Assembly (NCBI GenBank): GCA_013202925.1
Contig: JABMRA010000087.1
Location: 1 to 57,596 of the forward strand
Direction of reading: 5' to 3'
Length of the DNA stretch: 57,596 nucleotides
Source of the DNA: Candidatus Omnitrophota bacterium
GTDB taxonomy: Bacteria; Omnitrophota; Gorgyraeia; Gorgyraeales; Gorgyraeaceae
Below, in pieces: positions 22,694 through 48,211 of this stretch; positions within the stretch are counted from its first letter, which is position 1, and every line of letters starts with the position of its first letter. The translations under genes and the position numbers were made by a program. Below the pieces are notes generated by a model that made no database searches, had not been told where the DNA came from, and saw nothing but the letters and a program-made list of their open reading frames with translations.

Positions 22694-22704
22694 GGCAGGC
22701 GTCT

Positions 22705-23838: not shown

Positions 23839-24833
23839 TTTACGCCTCGACATTTTTTATCGCCTTTCTTTTGGCGCTATTTTTATCGCCAGTCAGCGTC
23901 AAGATAAGCAAGCGCTTTAATATCTTCTCCAAGCCAAAAAAGGGAGAGACAGGCGGCAAGCCGTGCCTTGGGGGTATTGCTATATATATGGCCTTTATCG
24001 TGACTGTCCTCCTTATGGCCTTTTTTAAAGTAATACATGGCCCCGGGTTTGCAGGGTTGATAATCGCCTCAGGCATGATAGTTTTATTAGGGCTGATAGA
24101 TGACGCAAAGGACTTGAGCCCCCTTAAAAAGATAATAGTAGAGTTGATAGCAATAGGGGTGTTGATATTATTTGGCGTCTTTACCGGGATCTCATTCCTG
24201 CCGATATGGACGAATATCCTGATCACGCTTATATGGGTACTTTTTATAACCAATGCGTTTAATCTACTGGATATTGCGGACGGATTGACCTCGGGACTTG
24301 TGATCATTATTTCCCTGACACTATTGGTCATTTCACTGGTGAACAGGGATATCTTTTCAGCAATCGTTCTGGTCGCATTGCTCGGGTCGCATCTGGGATT
24401 TCTGAAATATAATTACCCGCCGGCAAGGATCTACATGGGCGATACGGGGAGCCTGTTTTCGGGATTCGTATTGGCAGCAGTGGCAATAAACATCAGTTAT
24501 GCGCCGCTCGAACGCCCTGTTGCCCTGATCACGCCGATACTCGCGATGAGCCTGCCTATATACGATACGCTTTTTTTGATAATAATGCGTATAAAAAAAG
24601 GCAAGCCGATTTTTAGCAAGACCAATGACCACTTTACATTGAGGCTGGTTACCATGGGGAATGGAGTGCGTAAAAGTATCTGGATCATGTATCTTTTCAG
24701 CATCTTTTTGGCAGTCTCGTCATTGATAGTGGCCTTTGGTCCCAACAGGACAGGTGTGGTTATGTTGATCGTCGTGGTTCTTGTGTTTATTCTAATGGGG
24801 AAGAAGGTCGGGATGGTCAAGGTAGAGGATTGA
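23835..24833 (+). CDS. WecA/MraY-family polyprenyl-phosphate sugar-1-phosphate transferase (initiating enzyme)
   Basis: About 10 TM helices, with the motifs NAFNLLDIADGL and MGDTGSLFSGF that are characteristic of this family. Confidence 0.85.
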   Translation: MIYASTFFIAFLLALFLSPVSVKISKRFNIFSKPKKGETGGKPCLGGIAIYMAFIVTVLLMAFFKVIHGPGFAGLIIASGMIVLLGLIDDAKDLSPLKKIIVELIAIGVLILFGVFTGISFLPIWTNILITLIWVLFITNAFNLLDIADGLTSGLVIIISLTLLVISLVNRDIFSAIVLVALLGSHLGFLKYNYPPARIYMGDTGSLFSGFVLAAVAINISYAPLERPVALITPILAMSLPIYDTLFLIIMRIKKGKPIFSKTNDHFTLRLVTMGNGVRKSIWIMYLFSIFLAVSSLIVAFGPNRTGVVMLIVVVLVFILMGKKVGMVKVED

Positions 24834-26167: not shown

Positions 26168-27963
26168 GGATTTCGTGTTTTTATCATGATAGTGCTGCGG
26201 CATTGATCAAAGACGGAGAGATAATCGCAGCAGCGCAGGAAGAGCGTTTTACGCGCAAAAAGCACGATTTCAATTTTCCGGTGAATGCATTGAAATACTG
26301 CCTGGAAGAGGGAGACATAAAGGCCAGGGATTTAGCGTTCATTGCATTTTACGACAAGCCGCTTTTGAAATTCGAGAGAATACTATTTACGTACCTTTCT
26401 TATGCACCTTCGGGCTTCAGGTCTTTTTGTAAGGCCATTCCCTTGTGGCTGAAGGAAAGGTTGTGGATGTCGCACTTGATAGCTGAGAAGTCGGGTTTCA
26501 AGGGCAAGATCTTGTTTACGGAACATCATGAGTCGCATGCAGCATCCTGTTTCTATCCTTCTCCTTTTAAAGAGGCCGCGATCCTTACGATGGATGGGGT
26601 AGGGGAATGGACCACCGCAAGTATCGGGATCGGTAAAGATAATGATTTTAATCTGCTCTACGAGATAAAATTCCCGCATTCCCTGGGGCTTTTATATTCC
26701 GCGTTTACGTATTATACGGGATTCAGGGTCAACTCAGCAGAATACAAGGTCATGGGCCTGGCGCCTTACGGCGAGCCAAAATACGCTGATCTGATCTTAA
26801 ATGAGCTCATGGACTTGAAAGAGGACGGCTCTTTTAAGCTGGATATGAAATATTTCAATTATTGCGCCGGGCTTACAATGACGAATAATAGATTTAATAG
26901 GCTATTTGGCGGACCACCAAGAAAACCTGAGACAAAGATCACCCAGAAGGAAATGGACCTGGCAAGGTCTGTCCAGGCAGTAACCGAAGAGGTAATGCTC
27001 AGGACAGCAAGGCATGTTTATAAGCTTACAGGTATGAAGAATCTTTGCCTGGCCGGAGGGGTGGCGTTGAACTGCGTGGCCAATGGCAGGATCTTGCGGG
27101 ATGGGCCTTTTGACAAGATATGGATACAACCAGCCGCAGGTGACGCAGGGGGCGCAATCGGGGCAGCGCTGAGGATATGGTATAGATATTTGGGCAATAA
27201 GCGTGATGCAGACAATACCAAGGATAAACAGAAAGGTTCTTATCTGGGTCCGGTTTATACCGATGATTATATCGAAGATTATTTAAAGAAGCACAATGGC
27301 CCTTATCAGAAATTTTCGCAAGATGAATTATTAAAAAGGACAGCAGGTTTTATTGCTGCCAACAAGGTAATCGGCTGGTTTCAGGGCAGGATGGAGTTTG
27401 GGCCCAGGGCATTGGGCGCAAGGAGCATAATAGGCGATGCCCGTTCGCCGGATATGCAGTCACGCATGAACCTCAAGATAAAATTCAGGGAGTCATTCAG
27501 GCCGTTCGCGCCCACGGTTTTATCAGAGAATGCAAAGGAATATTTTGAGATCAGCTGCGACAGCCCTTACATGCTTCTGGTGGCAAATGTCAAAAATGGC
27601 CACTTAAAGGCAAGACCGGATAAAGAACCAGGGGGCTTTGGTAGGTTGAAAATAATACGTTCTGATATCCCTGCTGTTACGCATGTTGACAATTCCGCAC
27701 GGATTCAGACCGTATCAAAAGACAGCGAAAACAATATGTATTACGGACTTTTAAAGGAGCTTTACAGTAAAACAGGCTGTCCTGTAACAATAAATACGTC
27801 CTTTAATGTGAGAGGCGAGCCAATAGTATGCACGCCTGAGGATGCCTATAGGTGCTTTATGCGCACTGACATGGACTATCTTGTAATGGGGAGCTTTATC
27901 CTGGACAAAAAGGCACAGCCACTGGAGAGGCACGAGACAAGACAGTACTTTGAGCTCGACTAG
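26149..27963 (+). CDS. carbamoyltransferase (NodU/CmcH family)
   Basis: MSTYILGISCFYHDSAAALIKDGEIIAAAQEERFTRKKHD is the canonical family N-terminus. About 600 aa with an internal HHESHAASCF. Confidence 0.9.
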   Translation: MSTYILGISCFYHDSAAALIKDGEIIAAAQEERFTRKKHDFNFPVNALKYCLEEGDIKARDLAFIAFYDKPLLKFERILFTYLSYAPSGFRSFCKAIPLWLKERLWMSHLIAEKSGFKGKILFTEHHESHAASCFYPSPFKEAAILTMDGVGEWTTASIGIGKDNDFNLLYEIKFPHSLGLLYSAFTYYTGFRVNSAEYKVMGLAPYGEPKYADLILNELMDLKEDGSFKLDMKYFNYCAGLTMTNNRFNRLFGGPPRKPETKITQKEMDLARSVQAVTEEVMLRTARHVYKLTGMKNLCLAGGVALNCVANGRILRDGPFDKIWIQPAAGDAGGAIGAALRIWYRYLGNKRDADNTKDKQKGSYLGPVYTDDYIEDYLKKHNGPYQKFSQDELLKRTAGFIAANKVIGWFQGRMEFGPRALGARSIIGDARSPDMQSRMNLKIKFRESFRPFAPTVLSENAKEYFEISCDSPYMLLVANVKNGHLKARPDKEPGGFGRLKIIRSDIPAVTHVDNSARIQTVSKDSENNMYYGLLKELYSKTGCPVTINTSFNVRGEPIVCTPEDAYRCFMRTDMDYLVMGSFILDKKAQPLERHETRQYFELD

Positions 27964-27967
27964 TAAT

Positions 27968-28032
27968 CGCGGAACCACGCGGAACCTCTCGACTTCGCTC
28001 GGGGTAAACTCCCCGCGGAACTAACGCGGAAG
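27968..28032 (+). promoter_or_regulatory. four CGCGGAA(C/G) octamer repeats around a short hairpin in a 75-nt intergenic spacer
   Basis: CGCGGAAC at 27968, 27978 and 28014, and CGCGGAAG at 28025. Hairpin CGGGG-TAAACT-CCCCG at about 27999-28015. Confidence 0.4.
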
Positions 28033-28038
28033 GAAACA

Positions 28039-28422
28039 ATGAGGCAAGAACTGAGAAGATTCGGGTTTAATCTAGGATTGGGCTTAAATATACTGGGATG
28101 CATCATGTTCTACAGGGGCAGGGGGCATTTTATATGGTTTACAGGCATTGGGTCTTTGAATCTGCTCCTTGCTATTCTGTGCCCGAAGGTATTAATACCT
28201 CTGAAGAAGGCCTTGGATCTTGTTATCCTTCTGGTCGGCCGCACAATAAACACGGTAAGTTTGACGATCGTCTTTTATTTGATATTCGCGCCTATCGGAA
28301 TCCTGCTGCGACTATTTGGCAGGGACCTGCTGCACCGGAGAATAGATAAGACAGCCGGTTCTTACTGGATCAAAAGGAAAGAGACGGCTTTTACACCGGA
28401 TTCTTACGAACGTATGGGTTGA
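28039..28422 (+). CDS. small membrane protein, SxtJ-like (commonly follows carbamoyltransferase genes)
   Basis: 127 aa with 3-4 TM helices, directly downstream of the carbamoyltransferase. The family call is from memory of gene context and general sequence character only. Confidence 0.45.
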   Translation: MRQELRRFGFNLGLGLNILGCIMFYRGRGHFIWFTGIGSLNLLLAILCPKVLIPLKKALDLVILLVGRTINTVSLTIVFYLIFAPIGILLRLFGRDLLHRRIDKTAGSYWIKRKETAFTPDSYERMG

Positions 28423-29259: not shown

Positions 29260-30987
29260 ATGAATGCGATCAGACTGGAAAATGTAGGTAAGAGGTTTAT
29301 ACTGACGCACCAGGGGGATAGTGCGACGAGAGGTTTTTTTCATTCTTTCCCTGGGCAGAAAATAGCCACTGAATTCTGGGCCTTAAGAGATATAAGCATG
29401 GAAATCGAAAAAGGCAGGGTGATCGGTGTAATAGGAAGGAATGGGGCAGGCAAGAGCACGCTGTTAAATTTACTCGCCGGGACATCGTCACCTACAAAAG
29501 GCAAGATTGAGATCAATGGCAGGGTTTCCAGTCTCCTTACTCTAGGAGCTGGTTTTCAGGATGAATTAACGGGAAAAGAGAATATATTCCTCAACAGTTC
29601 TATTCTAGGAATGAGCCGTAATGAGATAAATAAAAAATATCGCAGCATTGTGGAGTTTTCCGAACTGGATGGATTTTTAGATTCTCCGCTTCAGGTGTAT
29701 TCTCAGGGAATGCGGCTGCGTTTGGGTTTCAGCGTGGCCATTCATGTGGATTTTGATATCTTGCTGATTGACGAAATCCTGTCCGTGGGAGATGTATCAT
29801 TTCAGAAGAAGTCCTTTGACAAGATAGAGCAGCTCAGGAAACAGGGAAAAACTATGGTTGTCGTTACTCAGTCATTGGACATTGTTGAGAGGTTTTGCGA
29901 AGAGGCATATTTATTGGAGAACGGCGAAGTTGTTGAAAATGGAAATCCACAGAAGGTCGCCGGCCGCTATATAGAGCTATTAAGTGAAAAGAAGTTGCCT
30001 GAGACATTCCGGCAGAGATACGGAAATCTGAAATGGTGGGCTGATAAAAGGTTCTGGGATATGAGGGAGGGGAGCAAGGAGGTGCGGATTGTTGATGTCA
30101 GGATGTTTAATTCGCAGAAAAGAGAGACAAATCGATTTAAATCAGGAGAAAAGGTTACTGTCAAGGCCCAGTTTGTAGTAGATGAAGAGGTTAGCGAGCC
30201 CCATTTTGGTATAGCTATATTCCGCGAAGACGGACTTTATTGCTACGGGCCAAATACATTATTCGACGGCCATAAAATAGATAAACTTAACAAAGGAACA
30301 GGTTTTTTTGGCGTCGAGTACAAATCCTTGGATCTAAGGCCTGGTAAATATCGTTTTTCTATTGCCATCTGGGACAAAAACGAACTCTGGGCCTATGACT
30401 ATCATGTCGGTTTTTATAAATTTGAGATTACTGGTGAAGGCAGCGATGGGGAGTTGCTAAATTTAAAATATAGGTGGGAGCCGGAAAATTGGTGGCAAAG
30501 GTTTAAGATACCGCAGCTAGAAAAGACGGATCCCCTCCCCATTTTAAATCCTCATATGCAAGACAATATCTTATCTCCAGATATGGAGCTTGCCTCGGTT
30601 GAAATTTTAGATTCGTCAGATAATGTAAAGTCAGTTTTTAAAACCGGAGAGGATATCAAGATAAAGATGCGGTTTAAATACCTTAAAGAGCCCCATGACT
30701 CTTATCTATGGCTAGGATTATTTCGCAGCGATGATGTATATTGCCACGGGGTATCAAAAAGATTAAAAGAGGATGAGATTGTATTGGCCTATCCTCAAAT
30801 GCCCCTATTAACCGGAGACTATTATCTATCCGTAGGTGTATGGAAAAAGGATAAAAAGGAACCTTTACTGTATGGATATAAGCCGTCTTTATTTAAGATG
30901 TCTTTTTTGGGCCAGGACCACGGGACAGTATATCTAGAACATTCCTGGAATTGGGAACTTCCAAAGAATATAAAGGAGGATGCATAA
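29260..30987 (+). CDS. wzt: polysaccharide ABC transporter ATP-binding protein (Wzt/TagH-like) with two tandem C-terminal beta-sandwich (Wzt_C-like) domains
   Basis: Walker A GRNGAGKSTLL, signature YSQGMRLRLGF, Walker B ILLIDEIL. Two similar C-terminal segments follow, at aa 272-392 (VRIVDVRMFN..KSGEKVTVKAQF) and aa 441-560 (ASVEILDSSDN..KTGEDIKIKMRF). Confidence 0.85.
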   Translation: MNAIRLENVGKRFILTHQGDSATRGFFHSFPGQKIATEFWALRDISMEIEKGRVIGVIGRNGAGKSTLLNLLAGTSSPTKGKIEINGRVSSLLTLGAGFQDELTGKENIFLNSSILGMSRNEINKKYRSIVEFSELDGFLDSPLQVYSQGMRLRLGFSVAIHVDFDILLIDEILSVGDVSFQKKSFDKIEQLRKQGKTMVVVTQSLDIVERFCEEAYLLENGEVVENGNPQKVAGRYIELLSEKKLPETFRQRYGNLKWWADKRFWDMREGSKEVRIVDVRMFNSQKRETNRFKSGEKVTVKAQFVVDEEVSEPHFGIAIFREDGLYCYGPNTLFDGHKIDKLNKGTGFFGVEYKSLDLRPGKYRFSIAIWDKNELWAYDYHVGFYKFEITGEGSDGELLNLKYRWEPENWWQRFKIPQLEKTDPLPILNPHMQDNILSPDMELASVEILDSSDNVKSVFKTGEDIKIKMRFKYLKEPHDSYLWLGLFRSDDVYCHGVSKRLKEDEIVLAYPQMPLLTGDYYLSVGVWKKDKKEPLLYGYKPSLFKMSFLGQDHGTVYLEHSWNWELPKNIKEDA

Positions 30988-30988
30988 A

Positions 30989-33900
30989 ATGAAGAAGAAT
31001 TATCCTAACGTAGGCATAATCACGGTAAATTTCAATGGCAGGAAACACCTCAAGGAACTCTTTGATTCTGTCTTTCGCCTGCAATACCCAAAAGATAAAA
31101 TGGAAGTCATCCTTGTGGATAATGCCTCTACAGATGATTCAGTTAGATTTGTGAAAAAGAATTATCCTAAGGTAAGGATTATAAAAAATGACGTTAATAA
31201 TTACACTAAAGCAGTTAATTTAGGAATAGACTCAGCAGAAAAGGCTGAATATGTAGCATTGGTGAATAATGACACCAGGATGTCTAAGAATTGGCTTGTA
31301 GAGCTCATAGGCGTAATTTCTAAAGATAAGAAGATTGCCGCAGTCGGCAGTAAGATATTAAATATGAAAGGCAAGGTTCAGAACGCAGGCCATTATGAGC
31401 TCCCTAATTTTTACTGGGGAGAAAGGGGCGCTGGACAGAAGGCCAAGAGGTATACCACCGTTGAAGAAGTGCCCAGTTTATGCGGCGCTGCAGTGCTATA
31501 CAGAAAGGACCCCCTTTTTGAAACAGGCTTATTTGATGAAGACTTTGTCATATACGGTGAGGATGTGGATATGGCTTTAAGATTGCGGAAAAAGGGTTAT
31601 AAGCTGATGTTTGTTCCAAAGAGTATTATTTATCATGAATTTCATGGCACAGCCAGCGAAGACCTCGCTCATTATTATATTGAGAGGAATAGGTTGCTAT
31701 TTTTGGCAAAGCATTATCCATATAAGTTGAGTAACAGTCTTTTGGGAAGCGGATATTTTACTGCAGAAAAATCCATTGATTCCTGCAGCAAGATTTATTC
31801 CATATTTCCCGATGTAATCAAGAAGTTAATCAAGGCCCACCCGTTGGATATAGCAAGCGAGGTTGCCTCAGAGGTATTTGAAGAGATGGGCAAGATTATT
31901 AATTATGAAAATGATTTACTGGCAAAAGAGATAAACAAGATTACGGAAGACAGAAACAATACGTATCTTAACCACGCCCATGTGCTTAAAAAATTGGAAG
32001 AGGAAACAAGTAATGTTTTCAAAAAGGATAAGGAATTATCAGCGCTAAGGGATAAATACAGCAATCTTTCCGAACAACTCAAAAGTCGAACAGGCGAAGC
32101 TTCTCGTCAGCTCAAGATTATTTCAGATAAAGAAAAAGAGATCTCCACTCAGCTACGCCAGAGGATGGACGAGGTCCTTATAAAGGACGGACAACTAATT
32201 GAAAAGGATAGCCATATTACTGGTCTAGGCAATCAAATCAACCAATTAAATGCAGAGGTCCAAGAACACCTAAATTCTCTGCAAGCTAAGGAGTCTCTCT
32301 TAGCCGAAAGAGAGGCCGATCTTACCAACCTCAGGAATGAACTAAACAATATCTCCACTCAGCTACGCCAGAGAATGGACGAGGTCCTTATAAAGGATAA
32401 CCATATCACTGGTCTAGGCAATCAAATAGTCCAATTGAATTCACAGATAGCTGTCCTTAAAGAAGAGCTTGATAATCTTTCTGATCAGCTTCACAGAAGA
32501 ATGGACGAGGTCTTGTTAAAAGACAGTGAAATAAATTGTCTAAAAGACGAACTCAGTGGAATCTATAATTCAGAAGGATTTCGCTTTGTCCTACGTCCTC
32601 TCTGGACCATTCTTTGGCATTCACGTAAATTTTTGAGGGCAGCAAAAAGAAAACTAGGTCAGGCGTTCTGGCTAACAATTACAATTATATTGACACCAGT
32701 TTTCATAGTTTTAAGTTTATGCTTTTTCCTTGAGCACATAACCTGGTCTATCCTTAAACCATTGCTGAAAAGGGTATCCCCAAAAAGAAAAATAATGCCG
32801 ATCAAGGATAGTAAAATAAGCCTGGTTATGCCCAATTACAATGGAGTTGATTGCCTGAGGGAATGTCTTCCTTCTGTCTTTAGCGCTGATGGCTTCACTG
32901 ATGGCCAGAATGAAGTGTTGATAGTCGACGATGGAAGCACAGACGGAAGCGTGGATTTCATAAGAGAGCATTTTCCGCAAGTCAGGCTTATTCAGAATAA
33001 TAGGAACAGAGGGTTTGGTTTTACCTGTAATAGAGGCGTGAAGAGTGCCAGAAACGAGATCGTGGTTTTAATAAACAACGATATCATCCTGACCAAGGAT
33101 TTTCTGCAACCTTTAGTCGGCCATCTTCAAAAAGAGGATGTTTTCGCGGTGACCCCAAAACTCTACGCCTGGGACAGAAAGACGTTTAATTGGGGGATGC
33201 ATATGGGCCACTTTAAAAAGGGCTATATAAGTCTATGGAACGAGGCAGAGACGGGAAACGGAGATAGGATTAGTCAAACCTCACCTTCAATATTTGCCAT
33301 TGGTGGAGCAATGGTATTCAGAAAAAGTGACTTTCTCTGGCTGGGCGGGTTTGACAGTATCTATCGTCCGAATTGCTGGGAGGATATAGATATCTCTTAT
33401 CAGGCGTGGAAGAGGGGGCTGAAGGTCTTATATGAGCCAAAAAGCCTTATGTATCACAAGGCAAGGGCGACCCTTACTTATGAAAGGCCGAAGGAGATAA
33501 AGAATGAGCTCTTGTTTACATGGAAGAACATCACTGACTCCGAGATATTGAAGGATCATTTGAATCTATTGCCTATGAATTTCTATCGGAATAGACTTAA
33601 CTTCCTGAAGGGCTTTTTTTGGGCATTAGATTATTTGCCGCAGATGCTTCTGCACCGTCTTCTTAATAGAAGCTATTTAAAGGCCAGCGACAGGGGCATA
33701 TTCAGCAACTGTATGCGTTACTACAGGAATTTCATGCGACGCGGTTTTCGTCATTTAGAGGAGAACGAGAGGAAGAAAGTGCTGCTCATCACCCCATTTA
33801 TGCCTTATCCGCTTAAGCAGGGCGGAAAAATAAGGATCCACGCGTTGGCATCCCTGCTTAAAGATAAATTTGATATATCCCTCTTGGCCCTGATCCATCA

Positions 33901-36900
33901 TAAGGGAGAAGCGGATTACGCGCTTGAGCTGAAAGGGGTATTCAGGGATATCCACACCGTATATCCCAAGACAGATATAAAGAGTAGATTATATCCCCAG
34001 CGCTATAAATATGCGCACAGTCATGCCCTGATCGATAAGCTCAAAGAGATCCAGAAAAATCAACCGATCGACCTTATCCAGATAGAGTCAAATGAGTTAT
34101 TGTATCTCGTCAATTATGTAAAACACATCCCTATCATCTATACCGAGCACGATTCAAGCGTTTTGTTTTTCAGGGACTCTTACTATCAGATAAAGGACGG
34201 GACGGCCTTTTCTAATCTATTTGACTACCTCAAGAGGGTGCGCCTGCATCATTCGCTTTATAAGAAGTTAGACAGGGCCATATTGTTATCCCGGGAAGAC
34301 GAGGAGGTCCTGCGCCCATTTTTCCCCAAGACCAATTTCTCTTTTATTCCTACAGGAGTCGATATCGAGAAGTTTTCGTTTGTCCACCCCGACAGGCCTA
34401 AGGCAAAGAGATTGATTTATGTGGGTCATTATCCGCACTATCCAAATGAGGATGCGGTCATATATTTTATAAAAAAAATATTCCCCCGCATACAGAAGAG
34501 GATTCCGGAGATCGAATTTTTAATAGTCGGCTCAGGCCCTACGGAGAAGATTAAACAGATCTCTAATCAGCACAATATCAGGCTGATACCTGACGTGGAG
34601 GACGTGTGGTCGTATCTTCGCGAGTCAGCGATCTTTGTCAATCCGATAAGGATCAGCGCAGGCATCAAAGGCAAGGTCCTGGAGGCAATGGCCGCTGGCA
34701 TACCAGTGGTTTCTACAAGGGTCGGGTCGTCAGGTATAATGGCCAGAAACAAACAGGAGATCCTGATAGCAGATACGCCTTCTGCCTTTGCTCGCGCCGT
34801 AATAAAACTCTTAAAAGACGACACTTTGTATTCCGGACTTGCACATAATGCGAGGAATCTGGTTGAACAAAAATATGACTGGTGCAGGATATCGCAGTTA
34901 TTGAGCCAGGCCTATGACGAGACCATGGCATTTGATGCCTTGTCTCCGGTCAAGGAAGAGATGTCTTTCGATAAGATCGTGGATTTAAGCAACAGGATCG
35001 TAGAAGAGGCGGTCGAGAAAGGCAGGTTTTGTTCCGGCTTTAAATACGGGCCGGAAGAGCTGCATATAGAACTTACATATCGCTGCGACAGCAAGTGCGT
35101 CATGTGCGACCTCTGGGATCAGCACATAAGAGTCCCCAAGCAGGAAAAAGAGATGACCCTGGACGAGATCAGGAGATTTGTAGATCAATCGGAACATCTA
35201 AAAAAGATAAAGACAGTGGTCTTGTCCGGAGGCGAACCTTTTCTCCGCAAGGATTTAATAGAGATCAGCGGTTATTTTATAGAAAGATTTCCTGGTATTT
35301 CCCTGGGGATACTTACCAATGGGATCAACACAAAGGCCATAATCAAAACCACAAAAGAGATCATAAAGAGGCACAGGCCAAAGAATATCTGGCTGGGCAG
35401 TTCTCTCGATGGTATTGGCGAGGCGCACGACAGGATCAGGGGGAAGAGAGGGGCGTTTTCTGCCATTGAAAAAACCATCCAGGTCTGCAAAAAAGAAGGC
35501 ATAAACATCACCCTTACCTTTACCCTCTCAAGCAGGAATTACGACCAGTTGATTCCCGCGAAGAGGTTTGCCGAAAGCTACGGCATAGAGTTTTACATCC
35601 AGTTTGTAGTACCTAAAGAGACCAGGGAAAAAGGCGTTTTCAGCTTTACGCCTACTCAGTTAAAGAGGATCGAAGCCGATCTCCATAAGATGATGCAGGA
35701 AGAAATCAAAGATGTGGATTATCAAAGGCTTTCAAGGGAGCTTGAGAGCGATTCTTACCAGGGCCTTGTAGGAAAATTATATTACCTTTCGAACCTTGTA
35801 AGGTATCAAAAAAATCCAAAGAGATATTTCAGAAAATGTGTAGCAGGGACAAAGTTTGCGATGTTTTCGCCGTCCGGGGATCTGTATTTCTGCCCGGGGC
35901 TTAAAAATGGCAGTGTGGGCAGTATCCGAAAAGAGAAGTTCGACAGTCTTTGGACTTCAAAGAAGGCAGATAGCATAAGGGAGTTTATCTCGCATGAGCT
36001 CTGTCATTGCTGGCTGGTCTGCGTCGTCTTTCCGGTCATAGACCAGGCACGTTCATCCATAAAGGGCGCTGCTGAAAAGGATACGCTCGATATCTTAGTA
36101 AAGACAGAAGATAGAAAGGAAAAGATAGCCGCCTTTTTAGAAGAGGATATGCGCCTCGCGGAGAAAAACAGCAGTCTTAACGAAAGAGAATATCGCCTCG
36201 GGAAGATCGACCTGGAATCAACGCCGCAGGGCATCGGCATAGGCGCGCACTGGAAGTGCGATGCCAATTGCGTCTTTTGCCTGGGCGGTCATCCCAGACT
36301 TTTCGATCTAAATACCTATAATCAGTTCTTCGAGAGGAGGCTTTTTAATGTCCTGCCAAAGGCGGAATTTATAAACCTCTGCGGTTTTGGAGAGCTGCTC
36401 CTGATGCCCCGCTGTGACGAATTCCTGGATTACATGAACAAGAGCCTTCCGTTCAGCAACAAGATACTTACCACAAACGGCACAGCTTTGTCAGACAGGA
36501 TCAATCAAAGATTGACCGAGGGCAGGTATAGTGTGCAGATCTCTTTACATGCTTCAGAAAAGAGATTGCATAAGACGCTTACCCATATGGATTCCTTTGA
36601 CCGGATCATTGAACAGACACGGAACCTCCTTGAGATCCGGAAGAAACAGCAATCCCCGTCTGTAAATCTTGTCTCCGTGGTCAATAGTTTAAACATAGAG
36701 AATCTGCCTCAGCTCGTTGAATTCGCCGCTAAATTGAGAGTGGACAGCGTACTTGTTAATTATATGACGATATACAGCCCGGCGCATCTGAAGCTGTCAT
36801 GTTTCTTCAAGCAGAAGATCACCAACCGTATGTTTTCCATGGCAGAGGAAAAGGCGTCCAAGCACGGGCTTTCATTGACGCTCCCGCCGAAGTTTGGGGG

Positions 36901-37213
36901 CAACGGCAATGGTTCAAAATATCCAAGATGCTCTGATCCATGGAAATATCTCTACGTGGAGACAGAGGGCTCTATCCTGCCGTGCTGTTATGCAGGGGCC
37001 CATATCGGATATCTTTATAGAGATGACTTCCAGGAGGTCTGGAACGGGGAATTCTATAGAAATCTAAGAAAGTCATTGGCAGAGGGAAGGGCAGAGGGGT
37101 GGTGTAAGTACTGTTACAAAAACAAACCCTCGAATGTAAACGATATCCGTTCGCATGTGAGTTTCAGGCCTGATCTGCAACAGAAGATCCTGAAAGGGGT
37201 TAGCCTCAAATGA
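30989..37213 (+). CDS. giant multidomain protein: GT2, coiled-coil, TM, GT2, GT4, radical SAM, radical SAM/SPASM-like
   Basis: Residue numbers follow the track ORF that starts at 30980. GT2-A aa 10-235 (IITVNFNG..VDNASTDDS..YGEDVDM). Coiled coil aa about 300-530. TM aa 561-585. GT2-B aa 612-835 (VMPNYNG..VDDGSTDGS..WEDIDIS). GT4 aa 932-1310 (GIKGKVLEAMAAGIPVVST). rSAM-1 CDSKCVMC, first Cys at nt 35084, then GGEPFL. rSAM-2 CDANCVFC, first Cys at nt 36257, with the C-terminal Cys cluster CSDPW..PCCYAG..WCKYC. The ATG at 30989 sits about 9 nt after AAGGAGG and is preferred to 30980. Confidence 0.85.
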   Translation: MKKNYPNVGIITVNFNGRKHLKELFDSVFRLQYPKDKMEVILVDNASTDDSVRFVKKNYPKVRIIKNDVNNYTKAVNLGIDSAEKAEYVALVNNDTRMSKNWLVELIGVISKDKKIAAVGSKILNMKGKVQNAGHYELPNFYWGERGAGQKAKRYTTVEEVPSLCGAAVLYRKDPLFETGLFDEDFVIYGEDVDMALRLRKKGYKLMFVPKSIIYHEFHGTASEDLAHYYIERNRLLFLAKHYPYKLSNSLLGSGYFTAEKSIDSCSKIYSIFPDVIKKLIKAHPLDIASEVASEVFEEMGKIINYENDLLAKEINKITEDRNNTYLNHAHVLKKLEEETSNVFKKDKELSALRDKYSNLSEQLKSRTGEASRQLKIISDKEKEISTQLRQRMDEVLIKDGQLIEKDSHITGLGNQINQLNAEVQEHLNSLQAKESLLAEREADLTNLRNELNNISTQLRQRMDEVLIKDNHITGLGNQIVQLNSQIAVLKEELDNLSDQLHRRMDEVLLKDSEINCLKDELSGIYNSEGFRFVLRPLWTILWHSRKFLRAAKRKLGQAFWLTITIILTPVFIVLSLCFFLEHITWSILKPLLKRVSPKRKIMPIKDSKISLVMPNYNGVDCLRECLPSVFSADGFTDGQNEVLIVDDGSTDGSVDFIREHFPQVRLIQNNRNRGFGFTCNRGVKSARNEIVVLINNDIILTKDFLQPLVGHLQKEDVFAVTPKLYAWDRKTFNWGMHMGHFKKGYISLWNEAETGNGDRISQTSPSIFAIGGAMVFRKSDFLWLGGFDSIYRPNCWEDIDISYQAWKRGLKVLYEPKSLMYHKARATLTYERPKEIKNELLFTWKNITDSEILKDHLNLLPMNFYRNRLNFLKGFFWALDYLPQMLLHRLLNRSYLKASDRGIFSNCMRYYRNFMRRGFRHLEENERKKVLLITPFMPYPLKQGGKIRIHALASLLKDKFDISLLALIHHKGEADYALELKGVFRDIHTVYPKTDIKSRLYPQRYKYAHSHALIDKLKEIQKNQPIDLIQIESNELLYLVNYVKHIPIIYTEHDSSVLFFRDSYYQIKDGTAFSNLFDYLKRVRLHHSLYKKLDRAILLSREDEEVLRPFFPKTNFSFIPTGVDIEKFSFVHPDRPKAKRLIYVGHYPHYPNEDAVIYFIKKIFPRIQKRIPEIEFLIVGSGPTEKIKQISNQHNIRLIPDVEDVWSYLRESAIFVNPIRISAGIKGKVLEAMAAGIPVVSTRVGSSGIMARNKQEILIADTPSAFARAVIKLLKDDTLYSGLAHNARNLVEQKYDWCRISQLLSQAYDETMAFDALSPVKEEMSFDKIVDLSNRIVEEAVEKGRFCSGFKYGPEELHIELTYRCDSKCVMCDLWDQHIRVPKQEKEMTLDEIRRFVDQSEHLKKIKTVVLSGGEPFLRKDLIEISGYFIERFPGISLGILTNGINTKAIIKTTKEIIKRHRPKNIWLGSSLDGIGEAHDRIRGKRGAFSAIEKTIQVCKKEGINITLTFTLSSRNYDQLIPAKRFAESYGIEFYIQFVVPKETREKGVFSFTPTQLKRIEADLHKMMQEEIKDVDYQRLSRELESDSYQGLVGKLYYLSNLVRYQKNPKRYFRKCVAGTKFAMFSPSGDLYFCPGLKNGSVGSIRKEKFDSLWTSKKADSIREFISHELCHCWLVCVVFPVIDQARSSIKGAAEKDTLDILVKTEDRKEKIAAFLEEDMRLAEKNSSLNEREYRLGKIDLESTPQGIGIGAHWKCDANCVFCLGGHPRLFDLNTYNQFFERRLFNVLPKAEFINLCGFGELLLMPRCDEFLDYMNKSLPFSNKILTTNGTALSDRINQRLTEGRYSVQISLHASEKRLHKTLTHMDSFDRIIEQTRNLLEIRKKQQSPSVNLVSVVNSLNIENLPQLVEFAAKLRVDSVLVNYMTIYSPAHLKLSCFFKQKITNRMFSMAEEKASKHGLSLTLPPKFGGNGNGSKYPRCSDPWKYLYVETEGSILPCCYAGAHIGYLYRDDFQEVWNGEFYRNLRKSLAEGRAEGWCKYCYKNKPSNVNDIRSHVSFRPDLQQKILKGVSLK
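32141..32540 (+). repeat. about 210-bp periodic intragenic repeats encoding the coiled-coil (ISTQLRQRMDEVLIKD...HITGLGNQI.QLN)
   Basis: ATCTCCACTCAGCTACGCCAGAG(G/A)ATGGACGAGGTCCTTATAAAGGA at 32141 and 32351. A third degenerate copy (CAGCTTCACAGAAGAATGGACGAGGTCTTGTTAAAAGAC) lies near 32487. Confidence 0.75.
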
Positions 37214-38805
37214 AAATAGCCCTTGTTCAATGTCCGGGATGGGGAAGAGACTGCCCTCCTTATAGCCTGGCACTTTTTTCTGCCATATTGCGCAATGCCG
37301 GCCATAAAGTTTCCTGCTTTGACCTAAATATCGCCCTTTATTGCAGCGGCCCAGAGAAATATCAAAGGTTCTGGGACGATAAGGATCTTTATAGTTTCTG
37401 GTCTAGCAAGGATTTGGTAGAAAAGTTTCTACAGGATAATAATAAGATGGTTGAATTTCAAGTCGAGCAGATTCTTGATACAGACGCAAGGATAATCGGC
37501 TTTACAGTGCATTTCAGCTCGCTTCTTGTAAGCCTGGAGATTGCGAGGAGGATCAAAGCGGCGGACAGGAAAAGGATTATTGTTTTTGGCGGTTCAGACT
37601 GTTGTCGCCAATTAAGAGGATTCGAGCTTATAAAAGAGGATGCGGTGGATATAGTCAATGTGGGCGAGGGCGACCTTAGCATCCTGGAATTGGTTAAGCA
37701 AGTGGAGACCAAGGGTGAAGTCGATTTTCTGAAGGGCGCCCTGGTCAAGAAAAATGGCAGTTTTATTGATTGCGGGGATATAGATGTAGTAGGCGACCTT
37801 GATAAGCTGCCCTTTCCTGATTATTCTGACTTTAGCGATGATATATCAGCAGGCATTTACAGGCAGCCTGAAAGGCTCGAGATACTGGATAGCCGCGGTT
37901 GCCCTACCAGGTGCCATTTCTGCAGCGAGTGGCAGTTCTGGAAGCGCTTTCGCTCCATGAGCGGGGAAAGGATGTTTGCCGAGATATCCTATCAGGTAAA
38001 AAACCATCCAGGCGTTGACTATTTTTATTTTATTGGTTCATTGCTCAATGGCAACATCAGGGCCCTGTCTGATTTTTGCGACCTTGTGATCAAGAACGGC
38101 TTGAAGATAAGATGGCTGGGTCAGCCGGTTATCAGAAAAGAAATGACAAGGGAATTTTTACAAAAGATGAGAAAGGCGGGCTGTGAGTGGCTTGGTTATG
38201 GCATTGAGAGCGGTTCCCAGAGGGTAGTTAACAGCATGAACAAGAAATTTTCATTAAAATTAGCGGAACAGGTCTTAAAGGATACTCATGACGCTGGCAT
38301 CATGGTCCAGGCGAATTTCATGTTCGGGATACCTACCGAAACAGAAAAAGATTTCAAAGAGACATTGAGTTTTTTGAAAAGGAACAGGGGTAGTATGGAT
38401 TCTGTCCTGGCGAGCCAGTCCTTCTGTGTCATAGACAAGGACACCTATCTTTACAATCATCCCGCAGAGTTTGATATAACAGACAGGGAGCACCATCTTT
38501 ACTGGGAATCAACAGGCAGTACCTATCCAGAGAGATTTCGTAGATACGAAGAATTTTGCAGATTAGCGCTGTCGCTGGGGATCCCTGAGACCTCAGGCGT
38601 GCTAAGAGTGAAGCCAGATAAGTGGAGGCTTTTAGGAGATTATTATTTATATAAGAAAGATTATCCAAAGGCAATAGATTGTTTTCATAAGGCACTGGAG
38701 GTCGAATCGCAGGAAGATTCTATATTGGAGAAGATCAATCATTGTCAGCAGAAGCTGGAGGGGTTAAGTCGTGACTATGCTGGAGTCCGCGAAGCAGGGG
38801 CTTGA
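37210..38805 (+). CDS. B12-binding domain radical SAM protein with C-terminal TPR-like tail
   Basis: MKIALVQCPGWGRDCPPYSLALFSAILRNAGHKVSCFDLNI, rSAM SRGCPTRCHFC (first Cys near nt 37900), YGIESGSQRV, and tail LGDYYLYKKDYPKAIDCFHKALEV. ATGA overlap with the giant gene. Confidence 0.85.
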   Translation: MKIALVQCPGWGRDCPPYSLALFSAILRNAGHKVSCFDLNIALYCSGPEKYQRFWDDKDLYSFWSSKDLVEKFLQDNNKMVEFQVEQILDTDARIIGFTVHFSSLLVSLEIARRIKAADRKRIIVFGGSDCCRQLRGFELIKEDAVDIVNVGEGDLSILELVKQVETKGEVDFLKGALVKKNGSFIDCGDIDVVGDLDKLPFPDYSDFSDDISAGIYRQPERLEILDSRGCPTRCHFCSEWQFWKRFRSMSGERMFAEISYQVKNHPGVDYFYFIGSLLNGNIRALSDFCDLVIKNGLKIRWLGQPVIRKEMTREFLQKMRKAGCEWLGYGIESGSQRVVNSMNKKFSLKLAEQVLKDTHDAGIMVQANFMFGIPTETEKDFKETLSFLKRNRGSMDSVLASQSFCVIDKDTYLYNHPAEFDITDREHHLYWESTGSTYPERFRRYEEFCRLALSLGIPETSGVLRVKPDKWRLLGDYYLYKKDYPKAIDCFHKALEVESQEDSILEKINHCQQKLEGLSRDYAGVREAGA

Positions 38806-39850
38806 CGAGAAACAAAAAAAGATTATTCAGGCCCTGAGTAAGCGCGATCTAAAGAAAAAACTGGAGAATTTTGTCCTCGTAGAAGAAGAAAAGGCAAGAA
38901 GAGAGGAGATCGTCTCTGGTTATCCCTACTGGCTCATAATCGATCCGGTTAATTTCTGCAACCTCAAATGCCCCTTTTGTCCTACCGGGCAGGAGAGGGG
39001 GTCGCGAAAGAGGGCAATACTTTCTTTTGACAATTTCAGGAAGATAATAGATGAGATAGGCCCTTACCTGATCCATATAGATTTCTGTAATTGGGGCGAG
39101 CCTTTTCTGAACAGGCAATTGCCGGAAATGATCAAATATGCCGAGAGGCATTATGTTGATACCAAGGTCGACACCAACCTTAATCTTCTCACTGAGGAAG
39201 ACGCTGAGAAAATAGTCCTCTCCGGACTTGATAAGATCATCGTATCCATAGACGGTATAACGCCCGAGACCTATTCTCGGTACAGGGTAGGAGGGGATTT
39301 TGATAAGGTCATGGAAAATCTCGGGATACTGGTCAAGAAGAAAAAGGAGCTCAAAAAGGCCACGCCTTATATCACATGGCAGTTTTTGGTGTTCAGGCAT
39401 AATGAGCATGAGGTAGAAGAGGCGAAAAAGATAGGTTGTGACTTAGGCGTAGACCACGTAGGTATTACCAAGGCATTTATTGGCGAAAAAGATTGGATCC
39501 CTTTAAACGAGGAGCTAAGCAATTACAGGCAGGAAGGACTAGGCAGCGGCTACACATCAGACGGCCTCAAGAAACCGCAGGGTACAATGTGCAACTGGCC
39601 CTGGGAGGCAATAACAATGAATCCCAATGGCTCTGTTTCGCCCTGCTGCTCTGTTGAAGACGAGAAAGATGACTTTGGCAATATCTTCCAGCAGCCATTC
39701 AGAGAGGTGTGGAATAATGAGAAATACAGGATGGCAAGGAGATATATCAAGGATAACGCGACGCAGGTTACGGGTGAGAATATCTGTGTAAACTGCGGGC
39801 ATTCAGGGATGATCAATATAGATATACTTTCGTGCCACAGTTTATTTTAG
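38771..39850 (+). CDS. radical SAM / SPASM domain protein
   Basis: DPVNFCNLKCPFCPTG (first Cys at nt 38957), NWGEPFL, and C-terminal SPASM-like CNWPWEAITMNPNGSVSPCCS...CVNCGHSG. GTG start at 38771 lies 7 nt after GGAGGGG. ATG at 38777 is the alternative. Confidence 0.8.
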   Translation: MTMLESAKQGLDEKQKKIIQALSKRDLKKKLENFVLVEEEKARREEIVSGYPYWLIIDPVNFCNLKCPFCPTGQERGSRKRAILSFDNFRKIIDEIGPYLIHIDFCNWGEPFLNRQLPEMIKYAERHYVDTKVDTNLNLLTEEDAEKIVLSGLDKIIVSIDGITPETYSRYRVGGDFDKVMENLGILVKKKKELKKATPYITWQFLVFRHNEHEVEEAKKIGCDLGVDHVGITKAFIGEKDWIPLNEELSNYRQEGLGSGYTSDGLKKPQGTMCNWPWEAITMNPNGSVSPCCSVEDEKDDFGNIFQQPFREVWNNEKYRMARRYIKDNATQVTGENICVNCGHSGMINIDILSCHSLF

Positions 39851-39978
39851 CGCAGATAAAACAAAAAATGTTTAAACAAATCAGTATCTAGTTATTTGTA
39901 AAGTAGTAAAAGATTTACAAATTCCCAGTGTTAAAAGGTCTCTAGCCATATTTTAACTGATTTATTAAATAGTGACTT

Positions 39979-41676
39979 ATGAATGCACGCGGTTTTCTTA
40001 GCAAGTTCGATAGAAGAGAAGTTGTTACTTTGTTATTGTTTGTTTCCGTTTATCTGGTGTTAGAATTGAGCCAAATTAAACTTCCTGGCTTATATTGTGA
40101 TGAAGCACATGATGCAGTAGGAACCTTACAAATTATGAAACATGTCAGTAGTGGATATTTGCAATCTATCCAATTTTTTGGTAGATATTTTCCATTGGTA
40201 AGGGGCACTTATCACGGCGCAGTAGGTTCTTATTTTATACTGCCATTTTTTTTGCTATTCGGAGTTAATATTGTCTCTCTACGACTTATGCCAATATTTA
40301 TCGGTATATTAACCTTAGTGTTTACCTATCTTTTTTCAAAGAGATTTTTTAGTCAGAAAGTGGCGTATTTAACAATTTTATTATTGGTTATCAGTCCAAA
40401 TTTTATCCTAGGGACAAAATTAGGCAATGATAATGGCTCTATAATGCAAATGATGTCCATGGCAAGTTTGTTTTGCCTTTTAATGTGGTACAGAAAGAAA
40501 AAGAATATTTTATTTTATACAGGTATGTTTTTCCTTGGTCTAGGCATTGCTACAAGGATTTGGTTTTTCTGGTTTATTGTCGCGCTCTTTTTGGCCAGTC
40601 TAATTTATATAAAAGATATTAATGAAATGATACGGAAAAATAAGCTAAATTATTTTAACCTATTTTTAGCAGGAATATTTGCTTTTTGTCTTGGTGCTTT
40701 TTTAATTATCTGCTTTAATTTTAAACATAATTTCATTACTTTAAGATACATCCTTTCCCATGCTGGCCAGAGTGTCGAGGGGGTCAGTAACCTTGATTAT
40801 TTTAATAATTTACTAATACGTATCCAGGATCTTGTTGTTTTGCTTAAAGAGCAATGGTTCGCATGGGTGATAGTAGGGTCTAAGGGGAATGAGCTAAGAT
40901 ATATATCCAGGAATGATCTTTGTCTTTGGGCATTTAACCTTTGTTTAATTTGGTTAGTTTTTTCTATTTTATTTATTAGAAAAAAGAGAGACATAAAACA
41001 GAGGAAAATTTTATTTTTATTATTATTGGTCTCTTTTATTTTTCTACAAAGCCCAATTACTCTTAGAGCTTTTGGGGGAAGTCACCTATTTATTTTATTT
41101 CCACTTTTACAATTGGTAATAGGTCTTGCGTTAGTCGATATGGTAAATTTTTTCAAAGGTAGTAAATTACTCGTTGCTGTAATCTCAAGCATTTTATTGG
41201 TGTTAATAATAACCGATCTGAATGTAATTATAAAAGAGTATTCTCGTCATAAAGAAACTGGAGGAGGCCCTAGTTATTCTGATAGTATAAATCAACTTGC
41301 CAGGTGGCTAAAGGAAAAAGAGATCGCTGTTCCTCTGGCTATGGATTGGGGATTGTGTCATAACCTTATTGTTCTTACAGATGGCAAAGTAAGGCCCCGA
41401 ACTTTTAGATATATTGAGGAGAGTGGAATTATTGAACCTGAACTAACATTAGTCAGAAATGAATTTATTAAGGATTTAAAAAAAGAAATAGAGGATAGAG
41501 ATAGATTGTTTTTGATTTTTCGCGCTCCCGAGATTAGTAATCGTGACCGCCATGATGATGTTTTGAAGATAACCAAAGAAACAAATAGGGATTATATTGA
41601 GGAAAAGAGATTTTACAGCAGAAATGGCCAGTTGATATATTTAGTCAATTCAATCAATTTATTAACTGATAAATAA
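39979..41676 (+). CDS. GT-C fold membrane glycosyltransferase (GT39/ArnT-like), strongly AT-rich gene
   Basis: 565 aa with about 12 TM helices. N-terminal PGLYCDEAHDAV loop, and a soluble C-terminal domain of about 130 aa. Hand-counted lines give about 30% GC, against about 45-50% in the flanking genes. Confidence 0.65.
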   Translation: MNARGFLSKFDRREVVTLLLFVSVYLVLELSQIKLPGLYCDEAHDAVGTLQIMKHVSSGYLQSIQFFGRYFPLVRGTYHGAVGSYFILPFFLLFGVNIVSLRLMPIFIGILTLVFTYLFSKRFFSQKVAYLTILLLVISPNFILGTKLGNDNGSIMQMMSMASLFCLLMWYRKKKNILFYTGMFFLGLGIATRIWFFWFIVALFLASLIYIKDINEMIRKNKLNYFNLFLAGIFAFCLGAFLIICFNFKHNFITLRYILSHAGQSVEGVSNLDYFNNLLIRIQDLVVLLKEQWFAWVIVGSKGNELRYISRNDLCLWAFNLCLIWLVFSILFIRKKRDIKQRKILFLLLLVSFIFLQSPITLRAFGGSHLFILFPLLQLVIGLALVDMVNFFKGSKLLVAVISSILLVLIITDLNVIIKEYSRHKETGGGPSYSDSINQLARWLKEKEIAVPLAMDWGLCHNLIVLTDGKVRPRTFRYIEESGIIEPELTLVRNEFIKDLKKEIEDRDRLFLIFRAPEISNRDRHDDVLKITKETNRDYIEEKRFYSRNGQLIYLVNSINLLTDK

Positions 41677-41768
41677 CTATCAGTAAGATTTATGATTATT
41701 TAATGTCAAATATTTTAATGAAAGAGTTTGAATAGTTTATTGGAATTTATAAAAGGATTGTATTTACA

Positions 41769-44468: not shown

Positions 44469-44471
44469 AAA

Positions 44472-48190: not shown

Positions 48191-48211
48191 AAGAGTCGCT
48201 TAAATAAAGCA

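Follow-up and report, generated by a model that had tools for sequence, protein, structure and literature searches.

A predicted glycan assembly protein of Omnitrophota with two radical-SAM domains fused to a WbbB-like set of glycosyltransferase modules

Contig JABMRA010000087.1 of a Candidatus Omnitrophota bacterium (assembly GCA_013202925.1), analysed here over positions 1 to 57,596 (the window), encodes a 2074-residue protein in which three glycosyltransferase (GT) modules, a coiled coil and a hydrophobic segment are fused to two radical S-adenosylmethionine (SAM) domains (rSAM). Our analysis suggests that this protein is probably a single-polypeptide assembly machine, comparable to WbbB, for a lipid-linked glycan exported by an ATP-binding cassette (ABC) transporter, and that two radical-SAM tailoring modules have been tethered to it. 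More tentatively, and short of even confidence, we propose that these two domains and the 13 further rSAM domains of the operon modify unactivated C-H bonds of the cytoplasmic lipid-linked polymer before export. The protein would then represent the first case of a polysaccharide synthase that has radical chemistry built in, and its assembly line would be widespread among Omnitrophota, related cassettes being present in Elusimicrobiota and further uncultured phyla. Coiled-coil rulers are the accepted model for length control of ABC-transporter-exported glycans. To our knowledge, the examples studied all come from Proteobacteria and Firmicutes and all employ conventional transferases, and the known cases of radical-SAM chemistry on sugars are confined to small molecules such as aminoglycosides and nucleoside antibiotics.

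The open reading frame (ORF; 30980..37213, forward strand) contains 2077 codons without interruption, and residue numbers below follow it. The ATG at 30989 is preceded by AGGAGG ending 9 nt upstream and starts 1 nt after the Wzt stop codon (30985-30987), which makes it the more likely start. Translation from this codon yields 2074 amino acids (aa) identical to the deposited protein P0001, annotated merely as 'MAG: glycosyltransferase [Candidatus Omnitrophica bacterium]'. From the N-terminus the modules are GT2a, the coil, the hydrophobic segment, GT2b, GT4, rS1 and rS2. Pfam scans gave two stretches of Glycos_transf_2 (PF00535; ~10-235 and 613-832; E = 6e-49, 166.6 bits) and a match to GT4/GT1 families at aa 998-1303 (PF13692/PF00534/PF13439; E = 1.5e-30), with PF00535 and PF13692 (106.8 bits) both above their curated cutoffs; NCBIfam added a TIGR03087-like match at aa 935-1305. 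Radical_SAM (PF04055) scored 86.5 bits at aa 1363-1516 (E = 3e-24; cutoff 29.5 bits), and two SPASM stretches (PF13186; E = 1.5e-17) matched the tails of both rSAM domains. Since Pfam gives only one Radical_SAM stretch for the whole protein, the assignment of rS2 rests on other evidence, namely NCBIfam matches at aa 1759-2004, the match of its family profile to BtrN and an AlphaFold2 (AF2) model that matches rSAM structures with E = 6e-14. The original prediction, made from the sequence before these scans, had the domain inventory and coordinates right to within a few residues. Both of its Cys triads, C1369/1373/1376 (CDSKCVMC) and C1760/1764/1767 (CDANCVFC), are present, as is its GGEPFL motif. 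Asp or Glu residues are invariant in each of the three GT modules among 37 homologues: D95, D183, D185, E191 and D192 in GT2a; D648, D698 and W797-E-D-I-D801 in GT2b; and E1232, along with K1227, in GT4. Scans with Pfam and NCBIfam returned GT2, GT4, rSAM and SPASM families only, with no homology to the WbbB Kdo (3-deoxy-D-manno-octulosonic acid) transferase or the WbdD kinase-methyltransferase, and PDB sequence searches with GT2a and GT2b-GT4 found generic GT2 and GT4 structures only, which ties these modules to no known linkage or donor.

Homologues were sought among 5.8 billion proteins, and loci in one genome per GTDB species; classes were assigned by blastp and tblastn mapping of the modules onto proteins and locus ORFs. 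The search for orthologues of the same fusion order, which the original prediction had proposed, recovered ~44 protein clusters with 35-71% identity to the query (NCBI, JGI, ENA and Logan assemblies) and 33 loci from the GTDB species scan, nearly all in Omnitrophota, with a few labelled 'uncultured Planctomycet*' and one from Abyssobacteria. About 30 GTDB species genomes, Omnitrophota in almost all cases, share this domain order. In class A, to which the window protein belongs, both rS1 and rS2 are fused; it comprises at least 17 protein clusters and 8 GTDB species genomes (42-71% identity), and 11 of its 16 clusters besides P0001 cover 96-100% of the query, the others being N-terminally incomplete or more divergent. 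Class B has rS1 alone fused and rS2 as the very next gene (P0258, for example, lies 14 nt after P0013). In class C (loci L025 and L030) the C-terminal position is taken by an rSAM of another, STM4011-like family. Class D lacks rSAM domains altogether, and its members P0043 (a complete gene on a 72-kb contig) and P0034 keep GT2a, coil, hydrophobic segment, GT2b and GT4 beside Wzm/Wzt.

This architecture can be compared with characterised assembly systems. In WbbB, an N-terminal terminating GT is followed by a coil and then by two C-terminal polymerase GTs (PMC11231755). More generally, in WbbB/WbdD/ORF6-type systems the terminator sits at the coil's distal end and coil length sets chain length, and the polymerase GTs are fused in ORF6 of Klebsiella pneumoniae O7 or recruited near the membrane for WbdD/WbdA (PMC11231755). 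WbbB (K. pneumoniae O12 / Raoultella terrigena) and the 2074-aa protein are alike in joining an N-terminal GT, a coil and two C-terminal GTs in one polypeptide, and both are encoded with Wzm and a Wzt bearing a carbohydrate-binding module, as in an ABC-transporter-dependent pathway. They differ in that the WbbB terminator is a Kdo-transferring GT and the putative terminator here a GT2 without sequence homology to it, and in that the Omnitrophota protein has a hydrophobic, Pro-kinked segment between coil and polymerase and two rSAM domains after the polymerase. Thus the analogy with coiled-coil rulers of ABC-transporter-dependent glycan assembly, drawn in the original prediction, holds, given the Wzm/Wzt context and a coil that separates GT2a from GT2b-GT4.

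Because the coil separates GT2a from the segment-GT2b-GT4-rS1-rS2 portion, GT2a occupies the terminator position, and we infer from this arrangement that it may be the chain terminator. GT2a is followed by the coil in every context examined. Stand-alone GT2a-coil proteins of 437-509 aa are encoded in L024 (with an ATGA overlap), L019 and L032, and GT2a-coil is joined to other, unrelated polymerases in P0045-P0053 and in a 1552-aa protein of L004. In this mobility GT2a-coil resembles the terminator-coil modules of ORF6 (K. pneumoniae O7) and WbdD/WbdA (E. coli O9a / K. pneumoniae O3). Similarly, the methyltransferase-kinase terminator of O7 has orthologues both with and without fused GT modules (PMC11231755). 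The ORF6-O7 and WbdD terminators are methyltransferase-kinases, and a methyltransferase-coil of that kind was found only in the related locus L001; membrane binding of WbdD is by an amphipathic helix, and none of ORF6-O7, WbdD and WbdA carries a radical-SAM domain. In L001, GT2a is replaced by a SAM methyltransferase that has a repeat-rich coil of ~200 aa and lies next to Wzt, and the segment-GT2b-GT4 portion, the rS1 homologue and the B12-rSAM-TPR homologue stay adjacent. In this locus the terminator module was swapped while the link between polymerase and rSAM was kept. A further arrangement was observed in five metagenomic proteins (P0046, P0049, P0384, P0413 and P0432), which consist of GT2a, coil and two rSAM domains without polymerase GTs, the rSAMs lying opposite the GT2a end.

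The coil lies within a 251-residue stretch without proline (aa 289-539) that scored 0.53, against 0.15 +/- 0.03 for shuffled sequence, by our own heptad measure. Dispersed DNA repeats in the coil region (31800-32700) are spaced by 210, 189 and 126 nt, exactly 10, 9 and 6 heptads; Tandem Repeats Finder reported nothing for the gene, and these repeats appear only with a dispersed-repeat tool. Together, the proline-free stretch, the heptad score and the heptad-spaced repeats support the heptad-rich coiled coil first read at aa 300-530. Between species the coil varies from ~100 to ~680 aa (~680 coil residues in P0007), and the spacer varies from ~150 to ~815 aa among homologues, while the catalytic modules keep 50-80% identity. 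Such variation in coil length with conserved catalytic modules is as expected of a ruler. At ~220-250 aa, the coil of the window protein would measure roughly 30-37 nm if fully extended. As a separate observation, the coil seems to lengthen via duplications that keep the heptad register.

The hydrophobic segment AFWLTITIILTPVFIVLSLCFFL (aa 562-584) is the sole strongly hydrophobic stretch of the protein. Across 44 homologues it is 20-28 residues long (most often 23), is flanked on both sides by net positive charge (+6 and +6 in the window protein) and is followed directly by Glu in nearly all cases; most of these homologues have a central Pro, which in the window protein is part of LT-P-VF. 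Both halves of the protein must be cytoplasmic, because the GTs need nucleotide sugars and the rSAM domains need SAM and a reductant. A single spanning helix is therefore not compatible with this arrangement, a point absent from the original prediction. We read the segment instead as a probable re-entrant anchor on the cytoplasmic face, which would hold GT2b-GT4-rSAM at the membrane with GT2a ~30 nm away. Monotopic phosphoglycosyl transferases of the PglC type have a re-entrant helix broken by a central Ser/Thr-Pro, with basic flanks and both ends in the cytoplasm. The likeness to the present segment lies in the central Thr-Pro and the basic flanks and is one of analogy, as the two are not homologous and the segment here is internal, between coil and GT2.

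To place the rSAM domains, each was aligned with ~50 stand-alone relatives, to which rS1 is 26-46% and rS2 23-58% identical and whose hosts include Omnitrophota, Elusimicrobiota, Patescibacteria and Scalinduaceae. A lack of the Cys triads in orthologues had been named at the outset as a possible objection; the triads are conserved in both families. In the rS1 family, the triad C1369/1373/1376 and G1417-G-E are invariant among 50 relatives, and in the rS2 family two of the three triad Cys are invariant, the first occurs in 90% or more of the sequences, and the GGE-type motif (GFGE) is conserved. Both families have a C-x12-G-x4-C hairpin and two or three Cys besides it. The rS1 tail has the pattern C1620-x12-G-x4-C1638 followed by C1675xCx3C1681; the rS2 tail is BtrN-like, C1984-x17-C2002 ... 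C2042xxC2045, with an additional conserved C2003. Each domain therefore has five C-terminal Cys (C1620, C1638, C1675, C1677 and C1681 in rS1; C1984, C2002, C2003, C2042 and C2045 in rS2), and neither tail contains the full seven-Cys SPASM motif CX9-15GX4C ... CX2CX5CX3C ... C. Five-Cys tails fit a twitch-like type with one auxiliary cluster each. Naming the domains by NCBIfam was tried and abandoned, as N_Twi_rSAM, W_rSAM_matur, HxsC, NirJ/AhbD, MoaA and the mycofactocin maturase all scored below their curated cutoffs; N_Twi_rSAM (NF033640) gave 139.9 bits against a cutoff of 170, with model positions 107-339 of 398 matched. By sequence, rS1 and rS2 belong to the twitch/SPASM branch of the rSAM superfamily and to no named family.

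Comparisons with structures gave neighbours of several kinds. The rS2 family profile matched BtrN best in the PDB (E = 2e-21; next entry 3e-11), the match of the single rS2 sequence to BtrN being weak (E ~1e-5). BtrN is 2-deoxy-scyllo-inosamine dehydrogenase, the founding twitch radical-SAM enzyme. It shares with rS2 the C-x17-C ... C-x2-C spacing of the auxiliary-cluster ligands and acts on a carbohydrate-like substrate, but sequence similarity is low, BtrN is a soluble enzyme of 250 aa acting on a small aminocyclitol, and rS2 has C2003 and helices in addition. The rS1 family profile matched SkfB, CteB, BlsE, BtrN and MoaA. The peptide maturases SkfB, CteB and SuiB, together with BlsE, a sugar-acting cytosylglucuronate decarboxylase, are the top profile and structure neighbours of rS1 and have the CX3CX2C core and the C-x12-G-x4-C hairpin in common with it; rS1 differs in lacking an N-terminal RRE, in having five rather than seven C-terminal Cys, and in being fused to GTs and encoded in a glycan operon. 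The AF2 models had a mean predicted local distance difference test score (pLDDT) of 90.7 for rS1 and 94.3 for rS2, and Foldseek ranked SuiB, DesII and SkfB above BtrN for rS2.

The rS1 family, with 4321 representative clusters at E <= 1e-30, is repeatedly fused to GTs. Among its best 150 clusters ~24 are fusions, including GT4-rS1, GT2-rS1, rS1-GT2-GT4, GT2a-coil-rSAM-rSAM and B12-rSAM-B12-rSAM-rS1. The recurrence of GT fusions in differing orders is good evidence that rS1 shares a pathway with glycosyltransferases. Furthermore, Wzm/Wzt clusters of other phyla encode stand-alone rS1 and rS2 homologues next to GTs and to the same B12-rSAM-TPR gene. As separate genes in some loci, and replaced or absent in other classes, rS1 and rS2 appear to be detachable accessory modules of the polymerase.

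We consider a sugar a likelier substrate than a peptide because BtrN is the best relative of rS2, BlsE is near rS1, and no RRE/PqqD or precursor gene is present. A lipid-linked polymer is favoured over nucleotide sugars because the operon has no genes for nucleoside diphosphate (NDP) sugars, because rSAM domains outnumber GT modules, because partner rSAMs carry TPR, and because of one fusion in another genome. In that locus (L031, 8085-9983; JAOZPD010000029.1, Candidatus Omnitrophota), a 632-aa protein combining rSAM-SPASM with two Wzt_C modules is encoded between Wzt and the gene for the homologue of the 2074-aa protein. Its rSAM-SPASM part is 39% identical to the product of window gene 50192, and its Wzt_C modules are only 42% identical to the genome's own Wzt, so that it is not a misassembled duplicate. 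A metagenome scan for further rSAM-Wzt_C fusions gave only the unfused L040 (Wzm, Wzt, then an rSAM gene), and the L031 protein forms a singleton cluster.

An alternative is that the rSAM domains act on soluble nucleotide sugars and that the resulting donors are channelled to the fused GT4 and GT2b. The sugar-acting relatives BtrN, DesII, BlsE and viperin all use small molecules, and fusion to GTs would fit channelling equally well. We nevertheless regard this alternative as unlikely, though deserving of more weight than the others discussed below. The ~32-kb operon has no nucleotidyltransferase, dehydratase or aminotransferase genes for NDP-sugars, and no NDP-sugar biosynthesis gene was found in the window. 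Its 15 rSAM domains face only four cytoplasmic GT modules (the upstream GT4, GT2a, GT2b and the fused GT4; the initiating transferase is excluded from this count) and one PMT_2 GT-C. Additionally, the TPR modules of partner rSAMs, and in one case Wzt_C, point to macromolecular substrates.

The rSAM domains might instead be the terminator, capping or altering the non-reducing end by radical chemistry and leaving a mark that the dual-module Wzt reads, as the original prediction had proposed when it placed them in the terminator position. Wzt has two modules and 568-590 aa in all ten class A/B loci with a complete Wzt gene, and is shorter (423-440 aa) in L001 and in the class D locus, which lacks rSAM, although this correlation of Wzt length may merely follow phylogeny. 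The L031 fusion likewise serves as a pointer that some rSAM of the operon is recruited to what these modules bind, and it keeps alive, weakly, the idea of an rSAM at the capped chain end. The placement itself found no support: the rSAM domains lie on the polymerase side, and it is GT2a that the coil parts from the polymerase GTs. Class D, without rSAM, still keeps GT2a-coil and a Wzt with a carbohydrate-binding module, and in L001 a methyltransferase-coil terminator coexists with rS1. We judge a terminating role for the rSAM domains to be quite improbable and retain GT2a as the candidate terminator.

Even less probable, in our estimate, is that rS1 and rS2 are SPASM-type maturases of a peptide, a protein (for example a future glycan carrier) or a cofactor, fused to GTs for co-localisation only. 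Their nearest structures do include SkfB, SuiB, CteB, anSME and PqqE, PMT_2 GT-C genes and TPR domains are present in the cluster, and PqqD genes occur near related rSAM clusters in L004 and L006. A reading of the operon in terms of ribosomally synthesised and post-translationally modified peptides (RiPPs) was set aside, as neither an RRE/PqqD domain nor a gene for a precursor peptide is present in the window. The intergenic gaps of at most 130 nt leave no room for such a gene in the operon, the ~30-50 residues before the Cys triad in rS1 and rS2 are too few for an RRE, and the recurrent fusion partners of the rSAM families are GTs rather than peptidases or leader-binding domains. Sugar, rather than peptide, thus remains the preferred substrate. 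Peptide-modifying rSAM cassettes can neighbour related glycan loci in other genomes: PqqD (RRE) genes and a ScmC-like rSAM were seen near such clusters at 16824-21928 in L004 and 498-779 in L006, and neither kind of gene occurs in the window.

The modules are also found as separate genes. GT2a-coil is split from the segment-GT2b portion in L024 (by the ATGA overlap) and L031, and rS1 is a separate adjacent gene, split from GT4, in L001, L033, L035 and L037. In a neighbour-joining tree built on GT2b-GT4, class B falls within class A and class D within class C, and the split forms are derived clades; modules have therefore split off or been lost repeatedly. That the long ORF is a sequencing or assembly artefact joining separate genes can be rejected with near certainty: each junction (GT2a-coil/segment-GT2b, GT4/rS1 and rS1/rS2) is indeed split in some lineage, but the split forms are derived and the complete two-rSAM fusion is conserved across the independent assemblies and GTDB species of class A. 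Stops in orthologues, which had been named as a sign of artificial read-through, thus do exist, but as natural gene fissions, and the full fusion is reproducible.

We propose the following model for the WbbB-like machine. Undecaprenyl phosphate would be primed by the WecA-like enzyme and the upstream GT4. The protein would be held on the cytoplasmic face by a re-entrant helix-break-helix rather than a spanning helix, and GT2b and GT4, alternating beside the membrane, would polymerise the backbone. Tethered to the C-terminus of GT4, rS1 and rS2 would each use a [4Fe-4S] cluster and SAM to generate a 5'-deoxyadenosyl radical that abstracts a hydrogen from a sugar C-H bond, each domain having one twitch-type auxiliary cluster. 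The nascent lipid-linked chain is the likely substrate and BtrN- or HygY-like reactions the likely chemistry, that is, oxidation or epimerisation, the kind for which HygY-type radical-SAM enzymes provide the comparison. The two domains might act together with the B12-rSAM methylases and other rSAMs encoded downstream. Once the chain reached the far end of the coil, GT2a would cap its non-reducing end; the cap would be recognised by the carbohydrate-binding modules of Wzt and the chain exported by Wzm/Wzt. The chain may finally be transferred to lipid A-core, to a protein by way of the PMT_2 enzymes, or to another acceptor.

Several points weigh against this model. The whole protein family is known from sequence alone, and the window protein is not homologous in sequence to either WbbB or WbdD. 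We know of no terminator from the GT2 family, and GT2a could instead be a branching enzyme or a third module of the polymerase. The coil score (0.53) comes from our own heptad measure and not from a standard predictor. A stretch of 23 hydrophobic residues is also a normal length for a spanning helix, and the re-entrant topology was deduced without a dedicated predictor. In the modelled structures, Foldseek puts rS1 and rS2 equally near peptide enzymes (SuiB, SkfB, CteB, anSME) and sugar or nucleotide enzymes (DesII, BlsE, viperin); with neighbours so mixed, the models favour neither substrate class and give no reading of function. Finally, the fusion of an rSAM to carbohydrate-binding modules in L031 is a single observation in a different rSAM family and serves as a pointer only.

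Full-text literature searches turned up no paper describing a fusion of GT and rSAM or placing rSAM enzymes in Wzm/Wzt clusters, in agreement with the earlier remark that no characterised fusion of this kind is known; in a 2026 preprint on Omnitrophota, radical SAM and GT1 are merely listed among the Pfams that co-occur in long proteins. Three aspects are new here. The ruler logic occurs in an uncultured phylum that branches deeply, where the cap is likely to be added by a GT2 and the membrane anchor is of another kind, probably re-entrant; radical-SAM enzymes are physically fused to a polysaccharide polymerase; and 15 of the 17 radical-SAM domains in the window belong to one conserved operon. 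If radical enzymes do act on the nascent polymer, this would be a new class of reaction for both fields, in which oxidation, epimerisation, C-methylation or cross-linking would be possible and which would yield a surface glycan of an undescribed kind, heavily modified at carbon. The fusion offers a defined construct for such work, the C-terminal didomain with substrate made by its own GT modules, and it bears on the cell surface of Omnitrophota, a phylum whose biology is almost unknown.

The gene lies within a co-directional, tightly packed run (22684-55014), the ~32-kb operon, whose features are collected in the table below. The Wzt gene appears to be translationally coupled to that of the 2074-aa protein, and its two Wzt_C stretches bear out the dual-domain Wzt that had been read directly upstream; Wzm and Wzt with carbohydrate-binding modules also neighbour the gene in homologous loci. 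The upstream gene order is repeated in L009, L011 and L028. Downstream, the genes keep their order in L005, L007, L010, L018, L022, L027 and L029 and are fused in varying ways. Elsewhere in Omnitrophota, B12-rSAM-TPR is fused to rSAM-SPASM (~900 aa) and B12-rSAM to the rS2 paralogue (~925 aa), and one three-module fusion of ~1190 aa occurs among the conserved downstream genes. Between 9383 and 54440, 14 genes of the window encode 17 CX3CX2C radical-SAM domains, of which 15 fall in the operon part (30989-54440). None of the 17 reaches a curated family cutoff, and the STM4011-like, RiPP C-methyltransferase-like and HpnJ-like matches of the downstream rSAMs are all sub-threshold. The presence of dnaG and rpoD upstream (12451-15825) identifies the DNA as chromosomal.

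Table. Positions of the 2074-aa protein, its modules and the neighbouring operon genes in the window
Feature	Position	Strand	Remarks
Multidomain protein gene	30989..37213	+	likely start 30989; ORF opens 30980; stop 37213
GT2a, N-terminal GT-A glycosyltransferase	31007..31759	+	aa ~10-260; Pfam stretch ~10-235
Coiled coil	31919..32572	+	aa ~314-531, within proline-free aa 289-539; putative molecular ruler
Hydrophobic segment	32663..32731	+	aa 562-584, 23 residues, central Thr-Pro; putative re-entrant membrane anchor
GT2b, second GT-A glycosyltransferase	32813..33484	+	aa 612-835; putative first half of polymerase
GT4 (GT-B) glycosyltransferase	33773..34909	+	aa 932-1310; putative second half of polymerase
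rS1, first radical-SAM domain	35042..36049	+	aa ~1355-1690; C1369x3Cx2C, GGE
rS2, second radical-SAM domain	36212..37210	+	aa ~1745-2077; C1760x3Cx2C, GFGE
GT4; WecA-like phosphoglycosyl transferase; flavin amine-oxidase-like; carbamoyltransferase; small SxtJ-like protein (in this order)	22684..28422	+	upstream part of operon
Wzm permease	28430-29254	+	ABC2_membrane
Wzt ATPase	29260-30987	+	575 aa; ABC_tran and two Wzt_C carbohydrate-binding stretches
Downstream tailoring genes	37210..55014	+	13 further CX3CX2C domains
Two gene pairs, B12-rSAM (in one case with TPR) then rSAM-SPASM	37210-39850, 41769-44468	+	
PMT_2 GT-C; Methyltransf_24 fused to rS2 paralogue	within 37210..55014	+	
Three double-rSAM proteins (STM4011-like)	46457, 48212, 51669	+	two rSAM cores each
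rSAM-TPR; short rSAM; O-methyltransferase	within 37210..55014	+	O-methyltransferase at end of run

Some further observations concern the surroundings of the gene. The B12-rSAM/rSAM-SPASM pairs overlap or abut in the window and are fused in most other genomes (~900-1190 aa); paired or fused forms were seen in L005, L007, L008, L010, L012, L016, L018, L022, L023, L027 and L029, which suggests that the pairs are obligate two-enzyme units. A carbamoyltransferase and a small membrane protein of the SxtJ/DUF5989 type lie beside Wzm/Wzt both in the window (26149-28422) and in the distant, rSAM-rich locus L002 (5629-7529), and this pair points to O-carbamoylation of the glycan. A second glycan-type set (4012-10825 and 15999-18513), separated from the main operon by dnaG and rpoD, comprises PMT_2-TPR, a long TPR protein, a GT2, a methyltransferase and two further B12-rSAM genes. 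An RNase H-like (RVT_3) gene is located upstream of the operon at 19950-20423, and the left end of the window (823-2830) encodes a PilT/T2SSE-type ATPase and two prepilin-type proteins.

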